Origin: Deltaproteobacteria bacterium
GTDB taxonomy: Bacteria > Myxococcota_A > Polyangia > Polyangiales > JADJMO01
DNA length: 64,000 nt
Direction of reading: 5' to 3'
Assembly: GCA_016182965.1 (NCBI GenBank)
Contig: JACPFM010000024.1
Location: 15,891 to 79,890 of the forward strand
Shown in pieces: positions 1,895 to 11,058 of the stretch. A model generated the notes under the pieces. That model was not told the DNA's origin. It was given only the letters and a program-made list of their open reading frames with translations, and made no database searches. The position numbers were made by a program, and so were the translations under genes. Within the stretch, counting starts at the first letter, position 1; the number at the start of each line of letters is the position of its first letter.

Positions 1895-3136
1895 TTGTCC
1901 GTTCGAACTCCCGTCGCCCTCATCCTCCTCGCAGCTCTCGCCGGGTGCGCCGCCTCCAAGGGCGACCGGACCGAGAGCGCCACGCTCGACGGCGGACTCG
2001 ATCCGGCGAAGGAGCCAACGGCCGACGCCGCGCCCGTCGGCGACGCCGATCCGGGGCCGGGGTTCGGCACCGACTCGGCGCTCCCGTCGCCCGATCCCGA
2101 GAAGGACAACGACGGCGACGGCTGGGCCTTCAAGGACGACTGCAACGACAAGGATCCGATGGTGAACCCGGGCGCGTACGACGTGCTCGGCGATGGCGTC
2201 GACAACGACTGCAACGGAACGGTCGACGATCCCTCGGTCGGCTGCGACACGACGGGCATCAAGCTCGACACCAAGAACGCGCTCGACTTCGCGCGCGCCC
2301 TCGGCATCTGTCAGGTCGCCGACCCGAGCGGCGAGGGCAAGGACAAGCGCTGGGGCCTCATGTCGGCGCAGCTGGTCCGCGCCGACGGCACGCCGGTCGG
2401 CGATCCCATGCAGCACGGCATCATGCGGAAGTTCGGCACCAACGTCTCCGCCAAGAGCGGCGCGAACCTGGTCGTGCTCTCCAGCGGCACCGCGCGCACC
2501 CCCGATCAGCCCGGCTTCATCACGGCGATCTCGCCGTCGTTCCGCACCGCCAGCGAGGTCGCGCCGCCGCCCGGTTGGCCCAAGCCCACCTCCGGCTGCC
2601 CGACGCCGTCCAAGACGACGGCGAACGACAGCGTGGGCCTGAAGCTCACGATGCGCGTCCCGACCAACGCGAAGTCGTTCTCCTTCGATTTCGACTTCTA
2701 CTCGTCGGAGTACATCAACTTCGTCTGCAGCTCCTACAACGACTCGTTCGTCGCCCTGCTCAAGACGGGCGCCAAGCTCGACCCGGCGAGCTCCGGCAAC
2801 GTCTCCTTCGACGCGATGAAGAACCCGATCAACGTCAACTCCGGGTTCTTCGAGGTCTGCACGCCGGGCAGCAGGAGCGGCAAGACGTTCGCGTGCGCCA
2901 AGGGGACCAAGGAGCTCGAGGGCACCGGCTTCTGGGATCCGTCACGCGCCGAGCAGAACGGCGCCACGTCGTGGCTCCGCACCAAGGCGCCGGTCATGCC
3001 GGGCGAGACGATGACCATCCAGTTCCTCATCTGGGATACCGGCGACCACATCCTCGATTCGACGGTGCTGATCGACAACTGGCAGTGGGACGCCACGCCG
3101 TCGACCAACCCGTCGACCGATCGCCCGCCGGCGTGA
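1895..3136 (+). CDS. lipoprotein with Cys/Asp metal-binding motif and choice-of-anchor-L-like domain
   Basis: TTG start with AAGGAG 7 nt upstream. MSVRTPVALILLAALAGC lipobox. DNDGDGWAFKDDCNDKDPMVNPGAYDVLGDGVDNDCNG motif. C-terminal region (FDFDFYSSEYINFVCSSYNDSFVALL...FLIWDTGDHILDSTVLIDNWQW) resembles the choice-of-anchor L family from memory. Confidence 0.75.
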   Translation: MSVRTPVALILLAALAGCAASKGDRTESATLDGGLDPAKEPTADAAPVGDADPGPGFGTDSALPSPDPEKDNDGDGWAFKDDCNDKDPMVNPGAYDVLGDGVDNDCNGTVDDPSVGCDTTGIKLDTKNALDFARALGICQVADPSGEGKDKRWGLMSAQLVRADGTPVGDPMQHGIMRKFGTNVSAKSGANLVVLSSGTARTPDQPGFITAISPSFRTASEVAPPPGWPKPTSGCPTPSKTTANDSVGLKLTMRVPTNAKSFSFDFDFYSSEYINFVCSSYNDSFVALLKTGAKLDPASSGNVSFDAMKNPINVNSGFFEVCTPGSRSGKTFACAKGTKELEGTGFWDPSRAEQNGATSWLRTKAPVMPGETMTIQFLIWDTGDHILDSTVLIDNWQWDATPSTNPSTDRPPA

Positions 3137-3142
3137 TCGAGC

Positions 3143-4519
3143 TCAGGCGAGCGGCGCGAAGCGTGCGGTGAAGTGGCGGAGCGCCGGCGGCGACGACACG
3201 ATGCGGTAGCCGCGGAGCTCGTTCGCGCGCTCGGCGACCTTGCAGCAGACCTCGGCCACGAAGTCGACGTGGCTCTGCGTGTACACGCGCCGCGGGATGG
3301 CCAGGCGCACGAGCTCGAGCGCCGAGGGCGCCTCGGTCCCGTCGGGGCGCAGGCCGAACATCACCGAGCCGATCTCGCACCCGCGGACGCCGCCCTCGAG
3401 GTAGAGCGCGGTCGCCACTGCCTGCCCCGGGTACTGCAGCGGCGCGATGTGCGGGCACATCGCGCGCGCGTCGAGGTACACCGCGTGCCCGCCCACCGGT
3501 TCGACGATCGGGATGCCGAAGGCGCGCAGCTTGTCTCCGAGGTACGCCGTCGAGCGGATGCGGTAGCGGAGGTAGTCGTGATCGACGACCTCCTCGAGAC
3601 CGCGCGCGATCGCCTCGAGATCGCGCCCGGCGAGGCCGCCGTAGGTGGGGAAGCCCTCGGTGAGGATCAGCAGCTCGCGGCAGCGACGCGCGAGCTCGTC
3701 GTCGTTCACCGCGAGCCAGCCGCCGATGTTCGCGAGGCCGTCCTTCTTCGCCGACATGGTCATGCCGTCGGCGAGCGCGGCCATGTCGCGGACGATGTCC
3801 TTCACGTCGCGATCGCCCTGCCCCGGCTCGCGCTCGCGGATCATCCAGGCGTTCTCGGCGAAGCGGCAGGAGTCGAGGAACAGCGGGACCGAGAAGCGAT
3901 CGCAGATCGCACGGACGCCGCGCAGGTTCTCGAGGCTGACCGGCTGGCCGCCGCCCGAGTTGTTGGTGATGGTGACGAACACCGCCGGGACGTGGCCGCG
4001 GTGCTCGGTCAACGCGGCCTCGAGCCGGCCGAGGTCCATGTTCCCCTTGAACGGGTGGGTGCTCGACGGGACGCGCCCTTCGGGGATGACCAGGTCGATC
4101 GCGCTCGCGCCCGTGTACTCCACGTTGGCGCGCGTCGTGTCGAAGTGGGTGTTGTTGATGATGACCTTGCCCGGTCCGCCGATCACCGAGAAGAGGATCT
4201 TCTCGGCCGCGCGCCCCTGGTGGGTCGGGATGACGTGGCGGAAGGGGAACAGCGACTTGATCGACGCCTCGAAGCGGAACCACGACGGGCTGCCCGCGTA
4301 GCTCTCGTCGCCGCGCTGGATGCCGGCCCACTGCTCCGAGGACATCGCGCCGGTTCCCGAGTCGGTGAGCAGATCGATGAGCACGTCGTCGGAGTGCAGG
4401 CCGAACAGGTTGTACCCCGCCTCGCGCAGCTTCGCCTCGCGCTCCTGCCGCGTGGTCATGCGGATCGGCTCGACGGACTTGATGCGAAACGGCTCGATGA
4501 TCGTGCGGAACCCGTCCAT
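3143..4519 (-). CDS. PLP-dependent beta-eliminating lyase, tryptophanase / tyrosine phenol-lyase family
   Basis: MDGFRTIIEPFRIKSVEPIRMTTRQEREAKLREAGYNLFGL..DLLTDSGTGAMS..IPTHQGRAAE..GGQPVS..CRFAENAW..MSAKKD (PLP lysine)..EGFPTYGGLAGRD..VEPVGGHAVYLDA..RLAIPRRVYTQSHVDF..LRHFTARF aligns along its whole length with E. coli TnaA and Citrobacter TPL as I recall them. Start taken at the second Met (4519). Confidence 0.9.
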   Translation of the reverse strand: MDGFRTIIEPFRIKSVEPIRMTTRQEREAKLREAGYNLFGLHSDDVLIDLLTDSGTGAMSSEQWAGIQRGDESYAGSPSWFRFEASIKSLFPFRHVIPTHQGRAAEKILFSVIGGPGKVIINNTHFDTTRANVEYTGASAIDLVIPEGRVPSSTHPFKGNMDLGRLEAALTEHRGHVPAVFVTITNNSGGGQPVSLENLRGVRAICDRFSVPLFLDSCRFAENAWMIREREPGQGDRDVKDIVRDMAALADGMTMSAKKDGLANIGGWLAVNDDELARRCRELLILTEGFPTYGGLAGRDLEAIARGLEEVVDHDYLRYRIRSTAYLGDKLRAFGIPIVEPVGGHAVYLDARAMCPHIAPLQYPGQAVATALYLEGGVRGCEIGSVMFGLRPDGTEAPSALELVRLAIPRRVYTQSHVDFVAEVCCKVAERANELRGYRIVSSPPALRHFTARFAPLA

Positions 4520-4554
4520 GCGCGGAGCGTGCGCACGCCGTTCCACGCGCGAAC

Positions 4555-5802
4555 ATGACGACGGTCATGGACATCATGGACAGCCAGCCTCGCGACGCCG
4601 GGCCCGCCTCGTGGCATCGTGCCGCGATGCGCCTCGCGAGCCGACTCGCCGCCGCCGCCGGCCTCATCGGCGCGCATCGCGACGTGCTCGCCGCACGGCC
4701 GGCCGGCTCCGGCGTGCCGGCCGCGCTCGATGCACGCGGGTGGACGGGGTTTCTCGCAGATCTCGGCGACGCATCCGTCGACGCCTTCGAGATCGCCGGC
4801 CTCGACGCTGACTGGAGCGCGGCGCCCCCGTCGCTCGCGGCGATGGTCGCCGAAGCGCGGGCCGTGTGCGCGGTGCCCGAATTGACCGAGGGTGCGCTCG
4901 GGCGCGACGCACCGCGCCATCGCCGTGCGTCGCGGCGCGGCGAGACCCCGCGCAAGTCGGCGCAGATCGACGCGTTCGCGTGGGTGCTCCTCCCGATCGC
5001 GCGCGACGCAGGTCGGATCGTCGACGTCGGCTCGGGGCACGGTCACCTGACCCGCGAGCTCGAGGCGCGGCTCGCGCGCCCGGTGCTCGGGCTCGAGCGC
5101 GACGTCCGCCTCACGGCGCGCGCGCGCTCGCTCGGCGGCGCGTTCGCGGAGACCGACGTGCTCCGCGACGGTCTGCCCCTCGAAGCCGGCGACTGCGTCG
5201 TCGGGCTGCACGCGTGCGGCGAGCTCGGCGACGTGATGGTGCGGAGCGCCGCCGAGCACCGCGCGTCCATCGCGCTCGTCGGCTGCTGCCTGCAGAAGCG
5301 ACGCGACGACGCGCGCGTGCCGCTGTCGGAGGCCGAGCCCGTCCTCGCCACGCGGCTGCTCGGCCTCAGCAACCTCGTCGCGCGCGAGGAGGGCGTCGAG
5401 GCCTCGCGCGCCGACAACCTCGCCGCCCGCGCGCGGCGGCTCGCGCTCCATCGGCTGCTGGTCGAGCGCGTCGGCCCGCTGCGGCTCGGCGCGGAGATGG
5501 ACGGCCTCAACCGGCGCGCCGCCCACGCCGATCTCTCGACGCTCGTCGAGCGGGCGTTCGCGCGGCGAGCGCTCGCGGTCCCGTCCGCGGCCGACGTGCG
5601 CGCGGCCGACGCCTGGGCGCGCGAAGAGCACGCCCGCGCGCGGCGCCTCTCGCTCCCGCGCGCCTTGCTCGCGCGCGTGCTCGAGGTGTTCGTGCTCGCC
5701 GATCGCGCCTGCTTCCTCGAGGCGCACGATCGAGAGGTCGTCGTCGGGAGGGTGTTCCCCGCGGGCGTGAGCGCGCGGAACCTGGCGCTGGTCTCTCGCT
5801 GA
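4555..5802 (+). CDS. SAM-dependent methyltransferase (Methyltransf_32-like)
   Basis: 415-aa ORF with motif I VDVGSGHGHLTRELE and GLHACGELGD..ALVGCCLQK, typical of the PF13679-type family from memory. Divergent from the lyase gene with a 35-nt gap. Confidence 0.65.
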   Translation: MTTVMDIMDSQPRDAGPASWHRAAMRLASRLAAAAGLIGAHRDVLAARPAGSGVPAALDARGWTGFLADLGDASVDAFEIAGLDADWSAAPPSLAAMVAEARAVCAVPELTEGALGRDAPRHRRASRRGETPRKSAQIDAFAWVLLPIARDAGRIVDVGSGHGHLTRELEARLARPVLGLERDVRLTARARSLGGAFAETDVLRDGLPLEAGDCVVGLHACGELGDVMVRSAAEHRASIALVGCCLQKRRDDARVPLSEAEPVLATRLLGLSNLVAREEGVEASRADNLAARARRLALHRLLVERVGPLRLGAEMDGLNRRAAHADLSTLVERAFARRALAVPSAADVRAADAWAREEHARARRLSLPRALLARVLEVFVLADRACFLEAHDREVVVGRVFPAGVSARNLALVSR

Positions 5803-5814
5803 GCGGCGGGGCGG

Positions 5815-6957
5815 TCACGCCAGGGTATCGATCGTCGGGAAGCGCGCGTCTTCCGTGACGCAACCCCAGAGGAAGCACGCAAGACCGAGGTCACCCGTCC
5901 ACAGGGAGTAGCGTCCCTGCCCGTAGCGCGAGCGCGTCGCGTCGCAGCGCGCGATGGCGTTCATCGCGAAGGCCCGCGCACGATCGAGCCACGTCGCGTC
6001 GCCGGTCGCCGCGTGCAGCGCGAGGAACGCATACCCGTTACCGGCGTCGCCGTGACAGAGGTTCGTCCCCTTGCGGAGCGGGCCGGCGCGCTCGATGGCC
6101 GCGCCCGCCGCGCTCAGCGTCGGCAGCGACGCGCGCAGCCCGGCGAGGCCGACCACGAACCCGGGCGCGCCATGGCAGATCTGCATCAGGCGCGGCCGCT
6201 CCCCCGCGGTCGCCGGCCAGCTCGCGAGCTCGCCTTCTCGCACGGCCGTGCGCTCGGTCGCCGCGGCGACGCTCGTCTCGATCTCTTCGCGTACGCGCGG
6301 ATCGAGCAGCGGCGCGGCGCGCAGGAGCACCGCGGCGTTGCCGGCGAACCCGTGCACGAGGCCGAGGTAGCGCTCGGCGCCGCCGAAGAGACGCTGGGAG
6401 AACAGCCCGTCGGCGTCGCGCGTCGACCACATCGAGACGGCGCCGCGGCGCGCCAGCTCGGCGAAGCGGACGTCGCCGGTGCGCGCGTGCACCCGCGTGG
6501 CGACCAGCACGGCGCCGGGCGCGCCGAGCATCAGCTCGTTGGAGGGCAGCGCGAGGCACGCCTCGATCTCTCGCAGCAGCGCGTCCGCGAGCTCGGCGTC
6601 GGGCGCGACGGCGTTCGCGACGGCGAGCGCCCCGAGCCGGCCCATGAGGAACCCGCGTGATCGCGACCGCTCGTCGCACGTCGCGCGCGCGACGTCGCGG
6701 AGCCACGGCGGCGCGCTCGCGACGCCGGCGCGCGCGAGATGATCGATCGCCCACACGACGCCCGCGGTGCCCCAGTAGATCGACGTCGGCGGCGGCGGCC
6801 CGTGGGTCTCGGGCTCGTCGAGCGGATGCACGGGGAAGCCGCGCCCGTCGAACGCCCGCGCGGCGTCGTCGACGACGCGCGCGATGGCGTCGCGCGCGAC
6901 GCGCTCGTCCCAGACCCGCGACGGCAGCTCGAGGTGGCGGTCCGGCTCGAACAGCAT
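5815..6957 (-). CDS. LanC-like (lanthionine synthetase C-like) protein, stand-alone
   Basis: Zn-ligand / active-site motifs of the LanC fold are present: GLVHGFAGNA, MQICHGAPGFV, NLCHGDAGNGYAF. Start moved to the ATG at 6957 because GGAGGGGGG lies directly upstream; the track start at 6987 is a TTG. No signal peptide. Confidence 0.8.
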   Translation of the reverse strand: MLFEPDRHLELPSRVWDERVARDAIARVVDDAARAFDGRGFPVHPLDEPETHGPPPPTSIYWGTAGVVWAIDHLARAGVASAPPWLRDVARATCDERSRSRGFLMGRLGALAVANAVAPDAELADALLREIEACLALPSNELMLGAPGAVLVATRVHARTGDVRFAELARRGAVSMWSTRDADGLFSQRLFGGAERYLGLVHGFAGNAAVLLRAAPLLDPRVREEIETSVAAATERTAVREGELASWPATAGERPRLMQICHGAPGFVVGLAGLRASLPTLSAAGAAIERAGPLRKGTNLCHGDAGNGYAFLALHAATGDATWLDRARAFAMNAIARCDATRSRYGQGRYSLWTGDLGLACFLWGCVTEDARFPTIDTLA

Positions 6958-6987
6958 CCCCCCTCCGATGCCGCCGCCCGACGGCAA

Positions 6988-7692
6988 TCACGACCCGAGC
7001 AGCTTGCGGACCTCGGCGATCGGCTTGCCCGCGAAGCGCTTCTTCGCCTCGTCGGCGTTGCTGAACGAGCGGGTGAACATGCGGTCGACGTAGAGCGTGC
7101 CGTCGAGGTGATCGACCTCGTGCTGGAGGATGCGCGCCGGCCAGCCCTTCACCCGCCACACCTGCTCGACGCCGTGCTCGTCGAGCCCGGTGACCTCGAC
7201 CTCGCGGCTGCGCTCCACGAGCCCCACGTAGCCGCGGACGCTCAAGCAGCCCTCGAAGAACGTGGCGCGATCGTCCTTCCCGTCGGAGATCGGGCGGAGC
7301 ACCGGGTTGACGAACACGCGCGGGCCGAACGCGAAGCGCTCGCGCTCCTTGCGCTCCTCGGGCGTGAGCTTCGACATCAGCTCTTCGCGGTCCTCGAGCA
7401 CGATGACGCGCAAGGGGACGCCGATCTGCGGCGCGGCGAGGCCGACGCCGGGCGCCTTGCGCATGGTGTCGATCATGCGGGCGACGAGCGCCTGGAACTC
7501 CGGCGTCGCGATGCGCTCCTTGGGCACCTCCTCGGCGCGCGAGCGCAGCACCGGCTGGCCGATCTGGACGATGTCGGGAGCGGCGGACGCCGAGGGCGAA
7601 GGAGCCGGCGCCGGCGACGACGCGGGCGCAGCCGGGGCGCCGCAGCCGATGGGCGAGAGGACGACGAGGAGGATGCCGAGCGCGCGACGCAT
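6988..7692 (-). CDS. def: peptide deformylase with N-terminal signal/lipoprotein-like extension
   Basis: All three PDF motifs are present: GVGLAAPQIG, EGCLSV, QHEVDHLDG. The N-terminus MRRALGILLVVLSPIGCGAPAAPASSPAPAPSPSASAAP looks like a signal peptide with Cys followed by a Pro/Ala/Ser linker. Confidence 0.9.
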   Translation of the reverse strand: MRRALGILLVVLSPIGCGAPAAPASSPAPAPSPSASAAPDIVQIGQPVLRSRAEEVPKERIATPEFQALVARMIDTMRKAPGVGLAAPQIGVPLRVIVLEDREELMSKLTPEERKERERFAFGPRVFVNPVLRPISDGKDDRATFFEGCLSVRGYVGLVERSREVEVTGLDEHGVEQVWRVKGWPARILQHEVDHLDGTLYVDRMFTRSFSNADEAKKRFAGKPIAEVRKLLGS

Positions 7693-7707
7693 GCCGCGAG
7701 CCTGTCC

Positions 7708-8403
7708 TCACGCGGCGCGGAAGTCGACGACGAACGCGTTCGGGGCCTCGGCCTCGACGATCCAGCGCGAGAGCGGGATCCACCGCGCCGCGCGATCGAG
7801 CACGATCGCGTCGGAGGAGGCGGCGATCTCGCCGGCCGCGACGCGCGCGTCGACGTCGCGCGCGAGCTCCACCTCGACGGCGACGGGCCACCCGCGCGCC
7901 GCGTCGCGAACGACGGAGGCGAGCTCGCCCGAGCGGCTGACCGGGGCATCGATGAGGAACGATGTCGACGCCGGCGCGAGCGCCCCGAGCCGCGCGCCGA
8001 CGAGCGCGATCGCTCGCCGGGTGAGGTCGCCCACCCGATGGCTCCCGCGCATCCCCGCGAGATCGCGCAGCGCGCCGTCGCGCCCGACGAGCGCGAGGCC
8101 GCCGCCGAGCGCGACCTCGACGGTGACCAACACATTGAAGCCGTCGACGACGAGCGCCCTGCCCGCCACGTATTCGGGGCGGAGGGCGCGCGCCCTTCGA
8201 GTGGCCGCTACCTCCGCCGCCGCCACGCTCCGCGCGATCGCGCGACGCTGCCGCTCGTCGAGCTGATGTCGACCGCCGACGAACGAGACGGCGCTCGCGA
8301 GCGGGTACCCGCGCCCGAGCAGCCACTCGACCTCCTCGGCGCCTGCGATCACGCGCGCGAGCGCCGCGCCCGTGAACCGGGACTCGTCGAGAGGATCACG
8401 CAT
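7708..8403 (-). CDS. DUF434-like domain protein (hypothetical)
   Basis: ATG at 8403 (cat 8401-8403) gives 231 aa: MRDPLDESRFTGAALARVIAGAEEVEWLLGRGYPLASAVSFVGGRHQLDERQRRAIARSV... The RGYP..FVG..HQL..R pattern matches my memory of DUF434. The upstream part of the track ORF is an Arg-rich artefact. Confidence 0.5.
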   Translation of the reverse strand: MRDPLDESRFTGAALARVIAGAEEVEWLLGRGYPLASAVSFVGGRHQLDERQRRAIARSVAAAEVAATRRARALRPEYVAGRALVVDGFNVLVTVEVALGGGLALVGRDGALRDLAGMRGSHRVGDLTRRAIALVGARLGALAPASTSFLIDAPVSRSGELASVVRDAARGWPVAVEVELARDVDARVAAGEIAASSDAIVLDRAARWIPLSRWIVEAEAPNAFVVDFRAA

Positions 8404-8414
8404 CGGCCGGAGGA

Positions 8415-8729
8415 TCAGTCGTCGGTCGGCTTGGGAGGCGGCTTGGTGACCGCATCCTCCCGCGACTCCCACTTCGCGTCGACGTCGGCGGGGCTCTCGA
8501 TCGCACCGAGCTCGAGCAGCCGCGCGACGACCATCGCGGTCTCGCGGACGCTCAGGTTGAGGAGCACGGCGATGTCGCCGACCGGCGTGTCGCCGTCCAT
8601 CCGCGCGAGCACCTGCGCCTCGATCGGACCGAGCGGGCACGCCGCGGCGTGGGCGGTGCGAACGAACACGTCATCCTCGCGCGGCGTGCGGATGGCGCGC
8701 GTCGGGTTCGGGCGCGGCTTCGGGACCAT
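8415..8729 (-). CDS. small hypothetical protein with winged-helix-like segment
   Basis: ATG at 8729; 104 aa. LGPIEAQVLARMDGDTPVGDIAVLLNLSVRETAMVVARLLELGAI resembles a wHTH module common in myxobacterial proteins. 11-nt gap to the next gene. Confidence 0.45.
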   Translation of the reverse strand: MVPKPRPNPTRAIRTPREDDVFVRTAHAAACPLGPIEAQVLARMDGDTPVGDIAVLLNLSVRETAMVVARLLELGAIESPADVDAKWESREDAVTKPPPKPTDD

Positions 8730-8779
8730 CTCGTCGCCAGCATAGCGAACCACAACGACTTGGCGAATTTCTCGAAACG

Positions 8780-9265
8780 CTACATCTCGTCCGCGCGCCG
8801 CTGCCACATGTACAGGATCGGCTGGAACACGAGATCGGCGAAGCCGAAGAACGTGAGCAGGATGAACGTGAAGCCGAAGACGACCTGCGCCGGGCGCAGC
8901 ACCGCGTCGCCCACCGGCGCGGCCGACTGGTTGCGCGTGAAGAAGAAGACGGCGAGCGCGCATACCACCGACCCGGCCGCCGAGAGCATCCCGCGGGCGA
9001 GGCTCGGCGCGCGCATCAGCCACCAGCCGAGCCCCGCGACGGTGCCGGCGAACACGACCGGCAACGGCGATCCTGCCGCGAGCTGAAGCCCCGACCGCGG
9101 GACCCCCGCCTGGATCTGCCAGGTCTGCAGGTACGTCGCGACGAGGACGACCCCAGCCGTGACGCGGAGCACGCCGATGAGGCGCACCAGCGACAAGAGC
9201 ACGCCCTTGAGGTGGACGTCGCGCAGCGGACGATCGGGAGCGGCGATGAGCGCCATCGCCCCCAC
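8780..9265 (-). CDS. hypothetical integral membrane protein (about 4 TM)
   Basis: 161-aa ORF with four hydrophobic stretches (VLLSLVRLIGVL.., GSPLPVVFAGTVAGLGWWL, AAGSVVCALAVFFF, VVFGFTFILLTFFGF). First gene of a tightly spaced minus-strand cluster. Confidence 0.5.
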   Translation of the reverse strand: MGAMALIAAPDRPLRDVHLKGVLLSLVRLIGVLRVTAGVVLVATYLQTWQIQAGVPRSGLQLAAGSPLPVVFAGTVAGLGWWLMRAPSLARGMLSAAGSVVCALAVFFFTRNQSAAPVGDAVLRPAQVVFGFTFILLTFFGFADLVFQPILYMWQRRADEM

Positions 9266-9330
9266 TTAGACGCACGCGCGCGCGCCGGAAAGGCGCCCGC
9301 CCGAGGGGCCTCTGGTACAGTCCGCGGCGG

Positions 9331-10218
9331 ATGGACGACGCGGCTCCCGAGAGCGGGGAACGGAACGGTCGCGAGGGCCGCGCCGGCGGCGCGCCCGACT
9401 CACGGGGTCGCCTCGATCCGCGCCTGCCGCTCGGCGTCTTCGACAGCGGCCTCGGAGGCCTGACGGTCGTGCGCGAGATCGCCGCCGCCCTCCCCGGCGA
9501 GCGCATCCTCTACCTCGGCGACACCGCGCGCGTCCCCTACGGCACCCGCTCCGCGGCGACGGTCGTGCGCTACGCGCAGGGCTGCGCGCGCGCGCTCGTC
9601 GACCGCGGCGTCAAGGCGCTGGTGGTCGCGTGCAACACGGTGAGCGCCGTCGCGCTCGACGTGCTCCGCGCCGATCTCGATCTGCCGGTGATCGGCGTGA
9701 TCGAGCCGGGCGCGCGCGCCGCCGTCTCCGCGTCGCGCCGGCTGCGCATCGGCGTGCTCGGGACCACCGGCACCGTCGCCTCCGGCGCCTACCCGCGCGC
9801 GGTCCTCTCGGTCTCGACCCGCGCCGAGATCGTCGCGCACCCGGCGCCGCTGCTCGTGCCGCTCGTCGAGGAGGGCTGGCTCGACGGCGAGGTCCCGCGG
9901 CTGGCCGTCCGCCGCTACCTCGAGCCGCTCGCGCGCGCCGACGTCGACGTGATCGTCCTCGGCTGCACGCACTACCCGCTCCTCCGCCCGATCATCGAGG
10001 AAGAGGCGCGCGCGATGATGGGCGACGTGCAGGTGGTCGACAGCGCGCACGCGACGGCCGCCGAGCTCGCGGGGCTCCTCGCGGAGCGCTCGCTGGCGAT
10101 CCCCGAGCCGCGCGGCGACATCGAGCTCCTGGTCACCGATCGCCCGCGCTCCTTCGCCGAGGTGACCACGCGCTTCCTCGGCGGCCCGCCGCGCGAGGTG
10201 CACGTGATCGATCTGTAG
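9331..10218 (+). CDS. murI: glutamate racemase
   Basis: GVFDSGLGGLTV, YLGDTARVPYG, VVACNTVSA (catalytic Cys), VLGCTHYPLL (second Cys). Has a roughly 35-aa N-terminal extension. Confidence 0.9.
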   Translation: MDDAAPESGERNGREGRAGGAPDSRGRLDPRLPLGVFDSGLGGLTVVREIAAALPGERILYLGDTARVPYGTRSAATVVRYAQGCARALVDRGVKALVVACNTVSAVALDVLRADLDLPVIGVIEPGARAAVSASRRLRIGVLGTTGTVASGAYPRAVLSVSTRAEIVAHPAPLLVPLVEEGWLDGEVPRLAVRRYLEPLARADVDVIVLGCTHYPLLRPIIEEEARAMMGDVQVVDSAHATAAELAGLLAERSLAIPEPRGDIELLVTDRPRSFAEVTTRFLGGPPREVHVIDL

Positions 10219-10419: not shown

Positions 10420-11058
10420 TCACGCGTCGTTTGAGCGGACCGCGCGGAGATCTTCGAACGCGGGGTGTCGGGGAATCCCGACCAACGCGTCGGAGATCCA
10501 CAAAGGCAGCTCCGCGTAGACCTTCCGGATGGCCCCGTCGCTGCAGCGCACGCACAGGAGAGCGTCGACGCCGTCGCGCGAGTTGTCGAAGACGTATGCG
10601 CGGTGCGCCAACGGAAGGGCGGCCGTGAGGTTCACGATGGATTTCTCGTAGCGAGAGATGATCTTCTCGATCGGCACGCTATGCCCCCCCGACATCACGC
10701 GCTGGGTGACGCGTGCGGCGTTGATCGTCGGGCTCTCGGTGCCGACGAAGAAGAGGCGCACGAAGTAGCCGGCGCTCCTGGCGCGACGAATGAACTCCAA
10801 CTTGTCCGGCGCGGACAGTACCGTCTCGAACGCGATGCCACGCTCGTTGGCCAGGAGCTCCTCTCGGCGATTCTCCGCCCATCGCGCAGCGTCGAGCACC
10901 GCACGGGTCGAATTCCAATCACCAAAGCGGTCCCGAGCGATCTCGTCCGGGTTGATGTACTCGACGCCCTCGCTCCAGCGGTCTTCTCGTAGCCGCTCGG
11001 TCACCGTCGTCTTGCCGGCTCCGTTCGGTCCGGCCACGACGATCAGGACCGGACTCAC
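10420..11058 (-). CDS. zeta-toxin-like P-loop kinase (COG4185-type), putative toxin
   Basis: VVAGPNGAGKTT Walker A, INPDEIA, FETVLS, GYFVRLFFVGTESPTINAARVTQRVMSGGHSVPIEKIISRYEKS, VFDNS. This matches the zeta toxin / predicted ABC-type ATPase family pattern. Local GC is visibly lower than in flanking genes. Confidence 0.85.
   Translation of the reverse strand: MSPVLIVVAGPNGAGKTTVTERLREDRWSEGVEYINPDEIARDRFGDWNSTRAVLDAARWAENRREELLANERGIAFETVLSAPDKLEFIRRARSAGYFVRLFFVGTESPTINAARVTQRVMSGGHSVPIEKIISRYEKSIVNLTAALPLAHRAYVFDNSRDGVDALLCVRCSDGAIRKVYAELPLWISDALVGIPRHPAFEDLRAVRSNDA

Follow-up and report, generated by a model that had tools for sequence, protein, structure and literature searches.

What does a peptide deformylase (PDF) do when its N-terminus looks like that of an exported lipoprotein, and does the LanC-like gene that follows it have a share in the answer? 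Both genes lie on the reverse strand of a 64,000-nucleotide stretch of DNA from a Deltaproteobacteria bacterium (contig JACPFM010000024.1, positions 15,891 to 79,890; hereafter the window, ~72% G+C). The first of them, def (6988..7692, -; 234 residues plus stop), encodes a type 1A PDF domain behind the N-terminus of a predicted lipoprotein-type precursor, and by protein search the exact product is annotated in the database as 'MAG: peptide deformylase [Deltaproteobacteria bacterium]'. The best explanation that we can offer, and one that we hold to be moderately probable, is that this is an accessory, lipid-anchored PDF which acts outside the cytoplasm on free N-formyl peptides.

Direct reading of the sequence leaves def with a single usable start, the ATG at 7692. 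An in-frame TGA lies 15 nucleotides upstream, codons 2-47, the linker included, contain no ATG, GTG or TTG, and initiation at the first GTG would cut off the first conserved strand of the PDF domain. Therefore, the N-terminal 39 residues, MRRALGILLVVLSPIGC and the linker, must be translated. They comprise, in this order, a predicted signal peptide of residues 1-16, MRRALGILLVVLSPIG (7645..7692, -), then Cys17 (7642..7644, -) and a stretch rich in Pro, Ala and Ser of residues 18-39 (7576..7641, -), after which comes the catalytic domain (residues 40-234; 6991..7575, -) as delimited by Pfam, structure matches and motifs. A sequence-only reading of this DNA had already described the linker; the Pro/Ala/Ser composition that it gave stands, and its length of 25 residues is corrected to the 22 measured here.

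The n-region of the signal reads M-R-R, with two Arg residues ahead of the uncharged 13-residue hydrophobic core ALGILLVVLSPIG, whose length falls inside the 7-22 residues allowed for an h-region by the n-/h-region criterion. Averaged over the 12 residues ahead of the Cys, hydropathy comes to 2.45. In the AlphaFold model, residues 1-40 lie outside the predicted fold and have no secondary structure, the predicted local distance difference test (pLDDT) score is ~55 over the signal segment, and the linker, where pLDDT is also low, is predicted to be a disordered tether. Cys17 stands in the context S-P-I-G-C and is the predicted lipidated residue, +1 of the mature protein. When P-I-G-C is set against the lipobox consensus [LVI][ASTVI][GAS]-C, positions -1 and -2 fit and position -3 is Pro; with Pro here, the segment may, in place of a lipoprotein signal, be a type I signal peptide or else an anchor that stays uncleaved. 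For all three kinds of signal alike, the positive-inside rule predicts that the PDF domain is placed outside the cytoplasm.

The call of an export signal is based on homologue comparison together with a strict rule, which demands basic residues at the start, then a hydrophobic core and, at its end, a lipobox Cys. A protein search supplied the 120 nearest cluster representatives of the def product (61-85% identity), and 74 of these qualified as extended, with at least 15 residues before the PDF domain. The strict rule was passed by 59 of the 74 extended homologues, and the controls passed it at 2.7% (shuffled extensions) and in none of 120 cases (homologues of the LanC-like protein). By eye, approximately 70 of the 74 are classical lipoprotein precursors, which begin with a stretch that contains K or R, continue with an uncharged hydrophobic core up to a lipobox Cys (LLVAC, LLAAC, LSLGC and VLSGC are examples) and then run into a linker rich in Pro, Ala, Ser and Thr. 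The lipobox is strict in 39 extended homologues and relaxed in at least 20 more, the Cys that ends the hydrophobic core is conserved clade-wide at a median position of 18, and basic residues stand ahead of the core in 57 of the 59 scored homologues. Because the twin Arg of the def product is not conserved among the homologues, which start with MKR, MR and similar, the Tat route was rejected and the Sec route is assumed. Cysteine content and net charge were tried as further marks of export and discarded, as long and short forms did not differ in either.

Genome loci gave the same picture. Scanning a genome collection with the PDF yielded 19 loci, taken with flanks of up to 10 kb, and 24 def loci were compared overall. 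When the frame upstream of the PDF match was translated independently of any gene annotation, a lipoprotein-type signal was found in 17 of the 18 Myxococcota loci with a readable def 5′ end, which are labelled Polyangiaceae, Archangiaceae, Myxococcaceae, Myxococcales and the like. The one locus that lacks it, L015, encodes a true short form, as a stop codon stands four codons ahead of its Met. Labilithrix luteola, a cultured organism with a complete genome (CP012333), has a def homologue with the signal. In a neighbour-joining tree, approximately 30 of the 196-residue forms fall in one clade, sister to the long forms, and a locus from this clade shows no signal upstream of its def, so that the 196-residue forms are, to judge from their sequences, genuine short cytoplasmic PDFs. 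Since these short forms make up a clade of their own, the signal is best regarded as a gained, lineage-specific feature.

Scattered 'short' entries also occur within the long-form clades, and these resemble gene calls made at an internal Met. One such pair was seen in a single 90% cluster, where P0101 and P0396 represent one gene, called either as 218 residues with the lipoprotein signal or as 196 residues from the internal Met, the latter in an entry that comes from NCBI. An annotation pipeline can thus, through the start site that it selects, mask an export signal and inflate the number of 'short' PDFs.

The export-type N-terminus that had been noticed from the letters of this one gene is, therefore, kept across a whole Myxococcota clade. 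We take the def product to work probably outside the cytoplasm, with its localisation predicted from this conserved lipoprotein-type signal.

The catalytic domain behind the signal is complete. The motifs I GΦGΦAAXQ, II EGCLS and III QHEXDH define the PDF family (PMC12690207), and the def product has GVGLAAPQ at residues 82-89 (7426..7449, -), EGCLSV at residues 147-152 (7237..7254, -) and QHEVDHLDG at residues 190-198 (7099..7125, -), in agreement with the earlier statement that all catalytic motifs are there. With them come the metal ligands (one Cys and two His) and the catalytic Glu. The match to Pfam PF01327 covers residues 40-205 with an E-value of 1.1e-45 (155.5 bits, cut-off 22.8), and the matches to NCBIfam NF001159 (177.9 bits, cut-off 125) and TIGR00079 (104.6 bits, cut-off 103.95) also exceed their thresholds. 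Motifs I-III are invariant in all 120 nearest homologues, and an alignment of 54 sequences contains 35 invariant positions. All 69 long forms keep the three motifs intact, which points to an active enzyme under selection.

The AlphaFold model of the def product (pLDDT 90) has the PDF fold, and the top Foldseek matches are all PDFs (E 6e-25), with a TM-score (TMt) of 0.91 to 1zxz/4je6. The closest solved structure is AtPDF1A 1zxz (2.5e-48, 51% identity), the human mitochondrial PDF 3g5k follows (6e-43), and the two type 1A structures stand at 49-51% identity. Other PDFs, the bacterial type 1B and type 2 enzymes among them, are much more distant, the best being those of Leptospira (2e-31) and Pseudomonas 1B (~1e-25), and the Foldseek ranking agrees with this order. 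By sequence and model, the domain is classed as type 1A, nearer to PDF1A than to types 1B, 2 or 3.

An exhaustive HMMER scan of 1.84 billion representatives gave only 142 at E ≤ 1e-30. Many of these PDF1A-like representatives bear long eukaryote-style presequences, and within the set N-termini of the lipoprotein type occur in no more than a few clusters at 50% identity. The identity of approximately 50% to the plant and human mitochondrial PDF1A hints at an evolutionary link between Myxococcota and eukaryotes. AtPDF1A is reportedly a zinc enzyme, as Serero et al. are said to have found in 2001, and Zn would be better suited to an oxidising compartment than the Fe(II) found in type 1B PDFs; by analogy, zinc would be the native metal of the def product.

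Some PDF1A-like representatives have unusual architectures (P0243, P0245, P0251, P0009, P0304, P0329 and P0252). Among them are long N-terminal domains fused to PDF (397-674 residues) and one tandem double PDF (339 residues), and three have hydrophobic, type-I-signal-like N-termini. Exported PDFs may also exist outside Myxococcota.

We next consider whether def is a housekeeping gene. Using tblastn with the window PDF and E. coli Def, no second def and no fmt were found in the 64-kb window, and no fmt stood beside def in any locus examined from the long or short clade members. A def without adjoining fmt fits an accessory rather than a housekeeping copy. According to a 2025 survey, more than one PDF is present in 48% of bacterial species, and in only 58% does def adjoin fmt (PMC12690207). 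Where PDFs are usually cytoplasmic, ribosome-associated and co-translational in action and often linked to fmt, we found a predicted export signal and no fmt neighbour. The equivalent of E. coli Arg97 is Val156, preceded by Tyr155 (7225..7230, -), and the clade consensus around this position is EGCLSVxGYVGLVER. Arg97 contacts actinonin, and its loss in Vibrio Def2 reduces susceptibility (PMC12690207). With Val156 at this position, reduced inhibitor binding by the def product is possible.

From these features we infer the following course for an exported, lipid-anchored PDF. The N-terminal signal would carry the def product across the inner membrane, probably via Sec, and the Lgt/LspA pathway would lipid-modify Cys17 and remove the signal peptide. 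The 22-residue tether would then hold the catalytic domain on the membrane surface in the cell envelope, possibly at the outer membrane or on vesicles. At such a site the enzyme would meet free N-formyl-Met peptides only, with nascent chains out of its reach. With no nascent chains to act on outside the cytoplasm, its substrates would plausibly be free formylated peptides or formylated toxins. The most likely role would be the unblocking of formylated peptides from lysed prey or sibling cells for aminopeptidases and transporters, as the formyl group must be removed before aminopeptidases can degrade such peptides; inactivation of formylated peptide toxins would be the second possible role. Nutritional unblocking comes first in our ranking, since many members of the Myxococcota are predators with many exported hydrolases of the lipoprotein type; the data agree equally well with scavenging and with toxin substrates. 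The essential deformylation in the cytoplasm would be left to another def elsewhere in the genome.

Several points weigh against this explanation. The Pro at -3 of the lipobox departs from the classical consensus. The other, cytoplasmic def is presumed to lie elsewhere in the genome, as the 64-kb window contains none. PDF metal centres and the catalytic Cys are sensitive to oxidation. No conserved peptidase or transporter that would give a clue to the substrate was found beside def in the clustered loci described below, and in lineages whose def has an internal start a cytoplasmic role may dominate. To our knowledge, the PDFs characterised so far all work co-translationally, in the cytoplasm or in organelles. 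This last point, together with the non-canonical Pro and with the loss of Arg97 through which accessory PDFs give actinonin tolerance (PMC12690207; here Val156, with Tyr155 beside it), speaks for an alternative in which the extension is not an export signal at all, and the product stays in the cytoplasm as an accessory or housekeeping PDF, perhaps as a spare copy that tolerates inhibitors, whose N-terminus is a membrane tether on the cytoplasmic face or is neutral. We consider this decidedly unlikely, because the basic residues before the core in 57 of the 59 homologues would, by the positive-inside rule, put the domain outside, a Cys at the end of the core with a low-complexity linker behind it, conserved across families, is a hallmark of lipoproteins and not of a cytoplasmic tether, and genuine short cytoplasmic forms exist separately.

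The evidence for export would serve equally well for a PDF that protects the envelope, either by binding natural PDF inhibitors ahead of their entry into the cell or by deformylating, and in this way weakening, the N-formylated peptide toxins of competitors, such as leaderless bacteriocins and phenol-soluble modulins. Natural PDF inhibitors have indeed been proposed to shape competition, and accessory PDFs to counter them (PMC12690207; bioRxiv 10.1101/2025.06.07.658423). A stoichiometric sink, however, is a weak defence, the loss of the Arg97 equivalent would lower and not raise inhibitor binding, and no biosynthetic or immunity genes lie nearby. Protection as the function of this PDF therefore seems unlikely to us, and the processing of free N-formyl peptides remains our preferred explanation. 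Widened to the Myxococcota, the proposal would be that an active zinc-type (1A) lipoprotein PDF on the periplasmic face, on the cell surface or on outer membrane vesicles deformylates N-formyl-Met peptides of prey or competitors, for nutrition or for the disarming of toxins, and that the Archangium lineage makes a cytoplasmic isoform as well. In this full form it falls somewhat short of probable, and we put it forward tentatively.

The cytoplasmic isoform just mentioned would arise from an internal start in the linker of the Archangium- and Myxococcaceae-type orthologues. In these, the linker segment P-G-G-K-G-M is coded CCN GGA GGN AAR GGN ATG, which places a perfect GGAGG 7 nucleotides before an in-frame internal ATG, itself 5 codons before the PDF domain. 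GGA is rare in these genes, making up 16 of the 317 Gly codons elsewhere in them. An internal ATG or GTG with a Shine-Dalgarno (SD)-like motif, 4-7 codons before the domain, was found in 10 of the 19 loci, and the motif is GGAGG in 6. In L005, L006, L007, L013 and L014 this feature lies approximately 10 codons past the lipobox Cys, and L009-L012 and L008 have it as well. This arrangement suggests that one def gene of the Archangium lineage may give two isoforms, exported and cytoplasmic.

It is then conceivable that the cytoplasmic PDF from the internal start is the physiologically important product of the gene. The SD-like motif with its rare GGA codon in the 10 loci favours this, as does the disagreement of annotation pipelines on the start of the same gene (218 or 196 residues). 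No suitably placed internal start was found in the window def or in its closest relatives L024, L109, L001, L017, L020 and L023, and with no start codon in codons 2-47 the argument does not apply to the gene studied here. As an account of this locus we regard it as extremely improbable, and the exported enzyme remains the product to be explained.

We now turn to the gene that follows def. A spacer of 30 nucleotides (6958..6987, -), read directly, separates the def stop from a stand-alone LanC-like gene of the LanCL type (5815..6957, -; 380 residues plus stop; PF05147). The spacer contains an SD sequence, GGAGG, at 6966..6962, which confirms the distance and the ribosome binding site reported from the sequence-only reading. 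The LanC-like gene starts with the ATG at 6957, and its product is identical to the 380-residue NCBI protein P0121. Co-transcription of the two genes is plausible because they are on the same strand, the gap is 30 nucleotides and no terminator-like site was seen. The scan of 5500..9400 found no promoter- or terminator-like site, and such a scan is uninformative at 75% GC.

Because of this arrangement, the two genes had been proposed to form a functional pair, a two-enzyme module that joins formyl-peptide processing with thioether or glutathione addition on a common peptide substrate. The same strand, the distance of 30 nucleotides, the SD sequence of the second gene, the lack of a terminator-like site between them and the apparently intact catalytic residues of both enzymes all agree with the proposal. 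The comparison of loci does not. A LanC-like gene was present, over flanks of up to 10 kb, at none of the 24 def loci, including relatives at 81-85% identity, and none of the other window neighbours stood beside def in the 19 genome-collection loci. Conversely, we examined 83 LanC-like loci, 80 from a metagenome scan and 3 from the closest homologue (60% identity), using the window PDF and E. coli Def as probes, and def was found at none of them, that of the 60%-identical closest homologue included. In the three closest def relatives (81-85% identity), the downstream genes are a 201-residue unannotated open reading frame (ORF) followed by a sulfatase, a DUF4336 protein, and an ORF on the opposite strand.

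When the ORFs around the 24 def and 83 LanC-like loci were clustered for conserved neighbours, only lineage-specific synteny recurred, namely PilZ-like and anti-sigma-like genes at Archangium def loci and a 122-residue ORF at 12 LanC-like loci. The predicted compartments also differ, as the PDF would be exported and the LanC-like protein, which lacks a signal peptide, would stay on the opposite side of the inner membrane. Nor does a gene for a dehydratase, a kinase/lyase or a precursor lie alongside. A lack of co-conservation in relatives had been named in advance as an outcome that would speak against the pair, and it is the outcome that we obtained. A shared module is thus highly improbable, and the adjacency of def and the LanC-like gene appears to be a one-off, a local accident of gene order.

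The LanC-like gene can be characterised in its own right. Its product matched PF05147 with an E-value of 1.3e-21 (77 bits, cut-off 23.2), and the Zn-ligand and active-site motifs are intact, as had been stated. These are the acid-His motif VHGFAGN with H202 (6337..6357, -), the Zn-ligand motif ICHGAPG with C261 (6160..6180, -) and the Zn-ligand motif LCHGDAGNG with C301-H302 (6034..6060, -). H202, C261 and C301-H302 align to residues of LanCL2 and LanCL1 (roles according to PMC9934072). The best matches among solved structures are human LanCL2 6wq1 (1.7e-18), LANCL1 and plant GCR2, with no bacterial LanC among them, and models of LanL, LanKC and LanM matched by their cyclase domains only, far under the cut-offs. 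His after the first Zn-ligand Cys is the signature of LanCL proteins, where lanthipeptide LanCs have Tyr (Ongpipattanakul et al., PMC9934072), and the residue after Cys261 is His.

The search for partners agreed with the sequence-only reading, since no LanB, LanM, LanKC, LanL, precursor or other lanthipeptide gene was found within approximately 10 kb of the LanC-like gene, and there is no room for a precursor peptide gene beside it. Measured as a class I lanthipeptide cyclase, it lacks an adjoining LanB or precursor gene and has His instead of Tyr. Neither it nor any of its 120 homologues showed a lipoprotein-type signal. Homologues at 43-48% identity occur in Sorangium, Burkholderia, Paraburkholderia, Reyranella, Methylibium and Caulobacteraceae. 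As far as can be told from these comparisons, the gene is an ordinary member of a large, widespread family of stand-alone proteins of approximately 400 residues, and its product would work in the cytoplasm as a zinc enzyme of the LanCL type, catalysing thiol addition to a dehydro-amino acid. The ~122-residue ORF seen in 12 of the 83 metagenomic loci, L044 included, lies approximately 100 nucleotides downstream of the LanC-like gene, and could encode a partner, restricted to certain lineages, for stand-alone LanC-like proteins.

On the other side of def, a DUF434 and DUF5616 gene (7708..8640, -; PF18481 6.3e-39, PF04256 2.5e-15) has its stop 15 nucleotides before the def ATG and is probably on the same transcript; it was found beside def in none of the 24 related loci. 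The flanks further contain a convergent Methyltransf_32 gene and a glutamate racemase gene, and there is no sign that def lies in a mobile element. Also nearby are a canonical lipoprotein with a LAALAGC lipobox and a MopE-type metal-binding motif (1895..3136, +), a beta-eliminating lyase of the tryptophanase / tyrosine phenol-lyase family (3143..4546, -) and a zeta-toxin-like kinase (10420..11058, -).

PDF is treated as strictly intracellular and ribosome-bound, and as an antibiotic target on that basis, so that a conserved extracytoplasmic form of such a ribosome-associated enzyme is surprising. The role otherwise known for formylated peptides is mainly that of a signal to the immune cells of animals. 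We found no report of secreted, signal-peptide or lipoprotein PDFs in the searchable full-text literature, to which the search was limited, subscription-only papers being outside its scope. The survey of 5,042 genomes (PMC12690207, with supplements) makes no mention of signal peptides, lipoproteins or Myxococcota PDFs. Judged by that literature, an exported PDF would be a new form of a known enzyme, and the LanC-like family is already known. If the proposal is true, bacteria would have here their first known case of an N-terminal protein-processing enzyme with an extracellular site of action, some bacteria would process free N-formyl peptides outside the cytoplasm, and formyl peptides would gain a testable role in predation, nutrition or interbacterial warfare. 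Through the def family, moreover, bacterial enzymes are connected with the mitochondrial PDF1A type of eukaryotes.

Among known systems, the LanC-like protein most resembles LanCL1 and LanCL2, which add glutathione to dehydro-amino acids. With these it shares the alpha/alpha-toroid LanC domain, the Cys-Cys-His Zn ligands, the acid His and the Cys-His dipeptide, and its gene stands alone as do those of the bacterial LanC-like proteins of many Proteobacteria. It differs from class I LanC of the NisC type in that no dehydratase or precursor gene adjoins it. The Archangium-lineage def orthologues, with an internal SD motif and start past the signal peptide, would resemble the pairs of N-terminal proteoforms that arise by alternative initiation and differ in localisation (PMC13515050), whereas the window def has no internal start and differs from them.

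For the def product itself there are two comparisons. Like the accessory bacterial PDFs, such as the integron- or plasmid-borne genes and Def2 of Vibrio cholerae (Lamberioux et al. 2025, PMC12690207), it comes from a def not linked to fmt and has lost the actinonin-contacting Arg97 with its motifs intact. Those enzymes are cytoplasmic and able to replace the canonical PDF, whereas the def product is predicted to be exported. With the type 1A PDFs (AtPDF1A 1zxz and human mitochondrial 3g5k), it shares the fold (TMt 0.91; domain 49-51% identical), the insertion between motifs I and II and identical motifs I-III, although AtPDF1A has Arg at the position where the def product has Val. The type 1A PDFs also have a cleavable targeting extension ahead of the domain, and it is here that the two part. 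Their extension is a mitochondrial presequence, which sends the enzyme to a compartment where translation takes place, whereas the predicted bacterial lipoprotein signal of the def product would send it away from the ribosomes.

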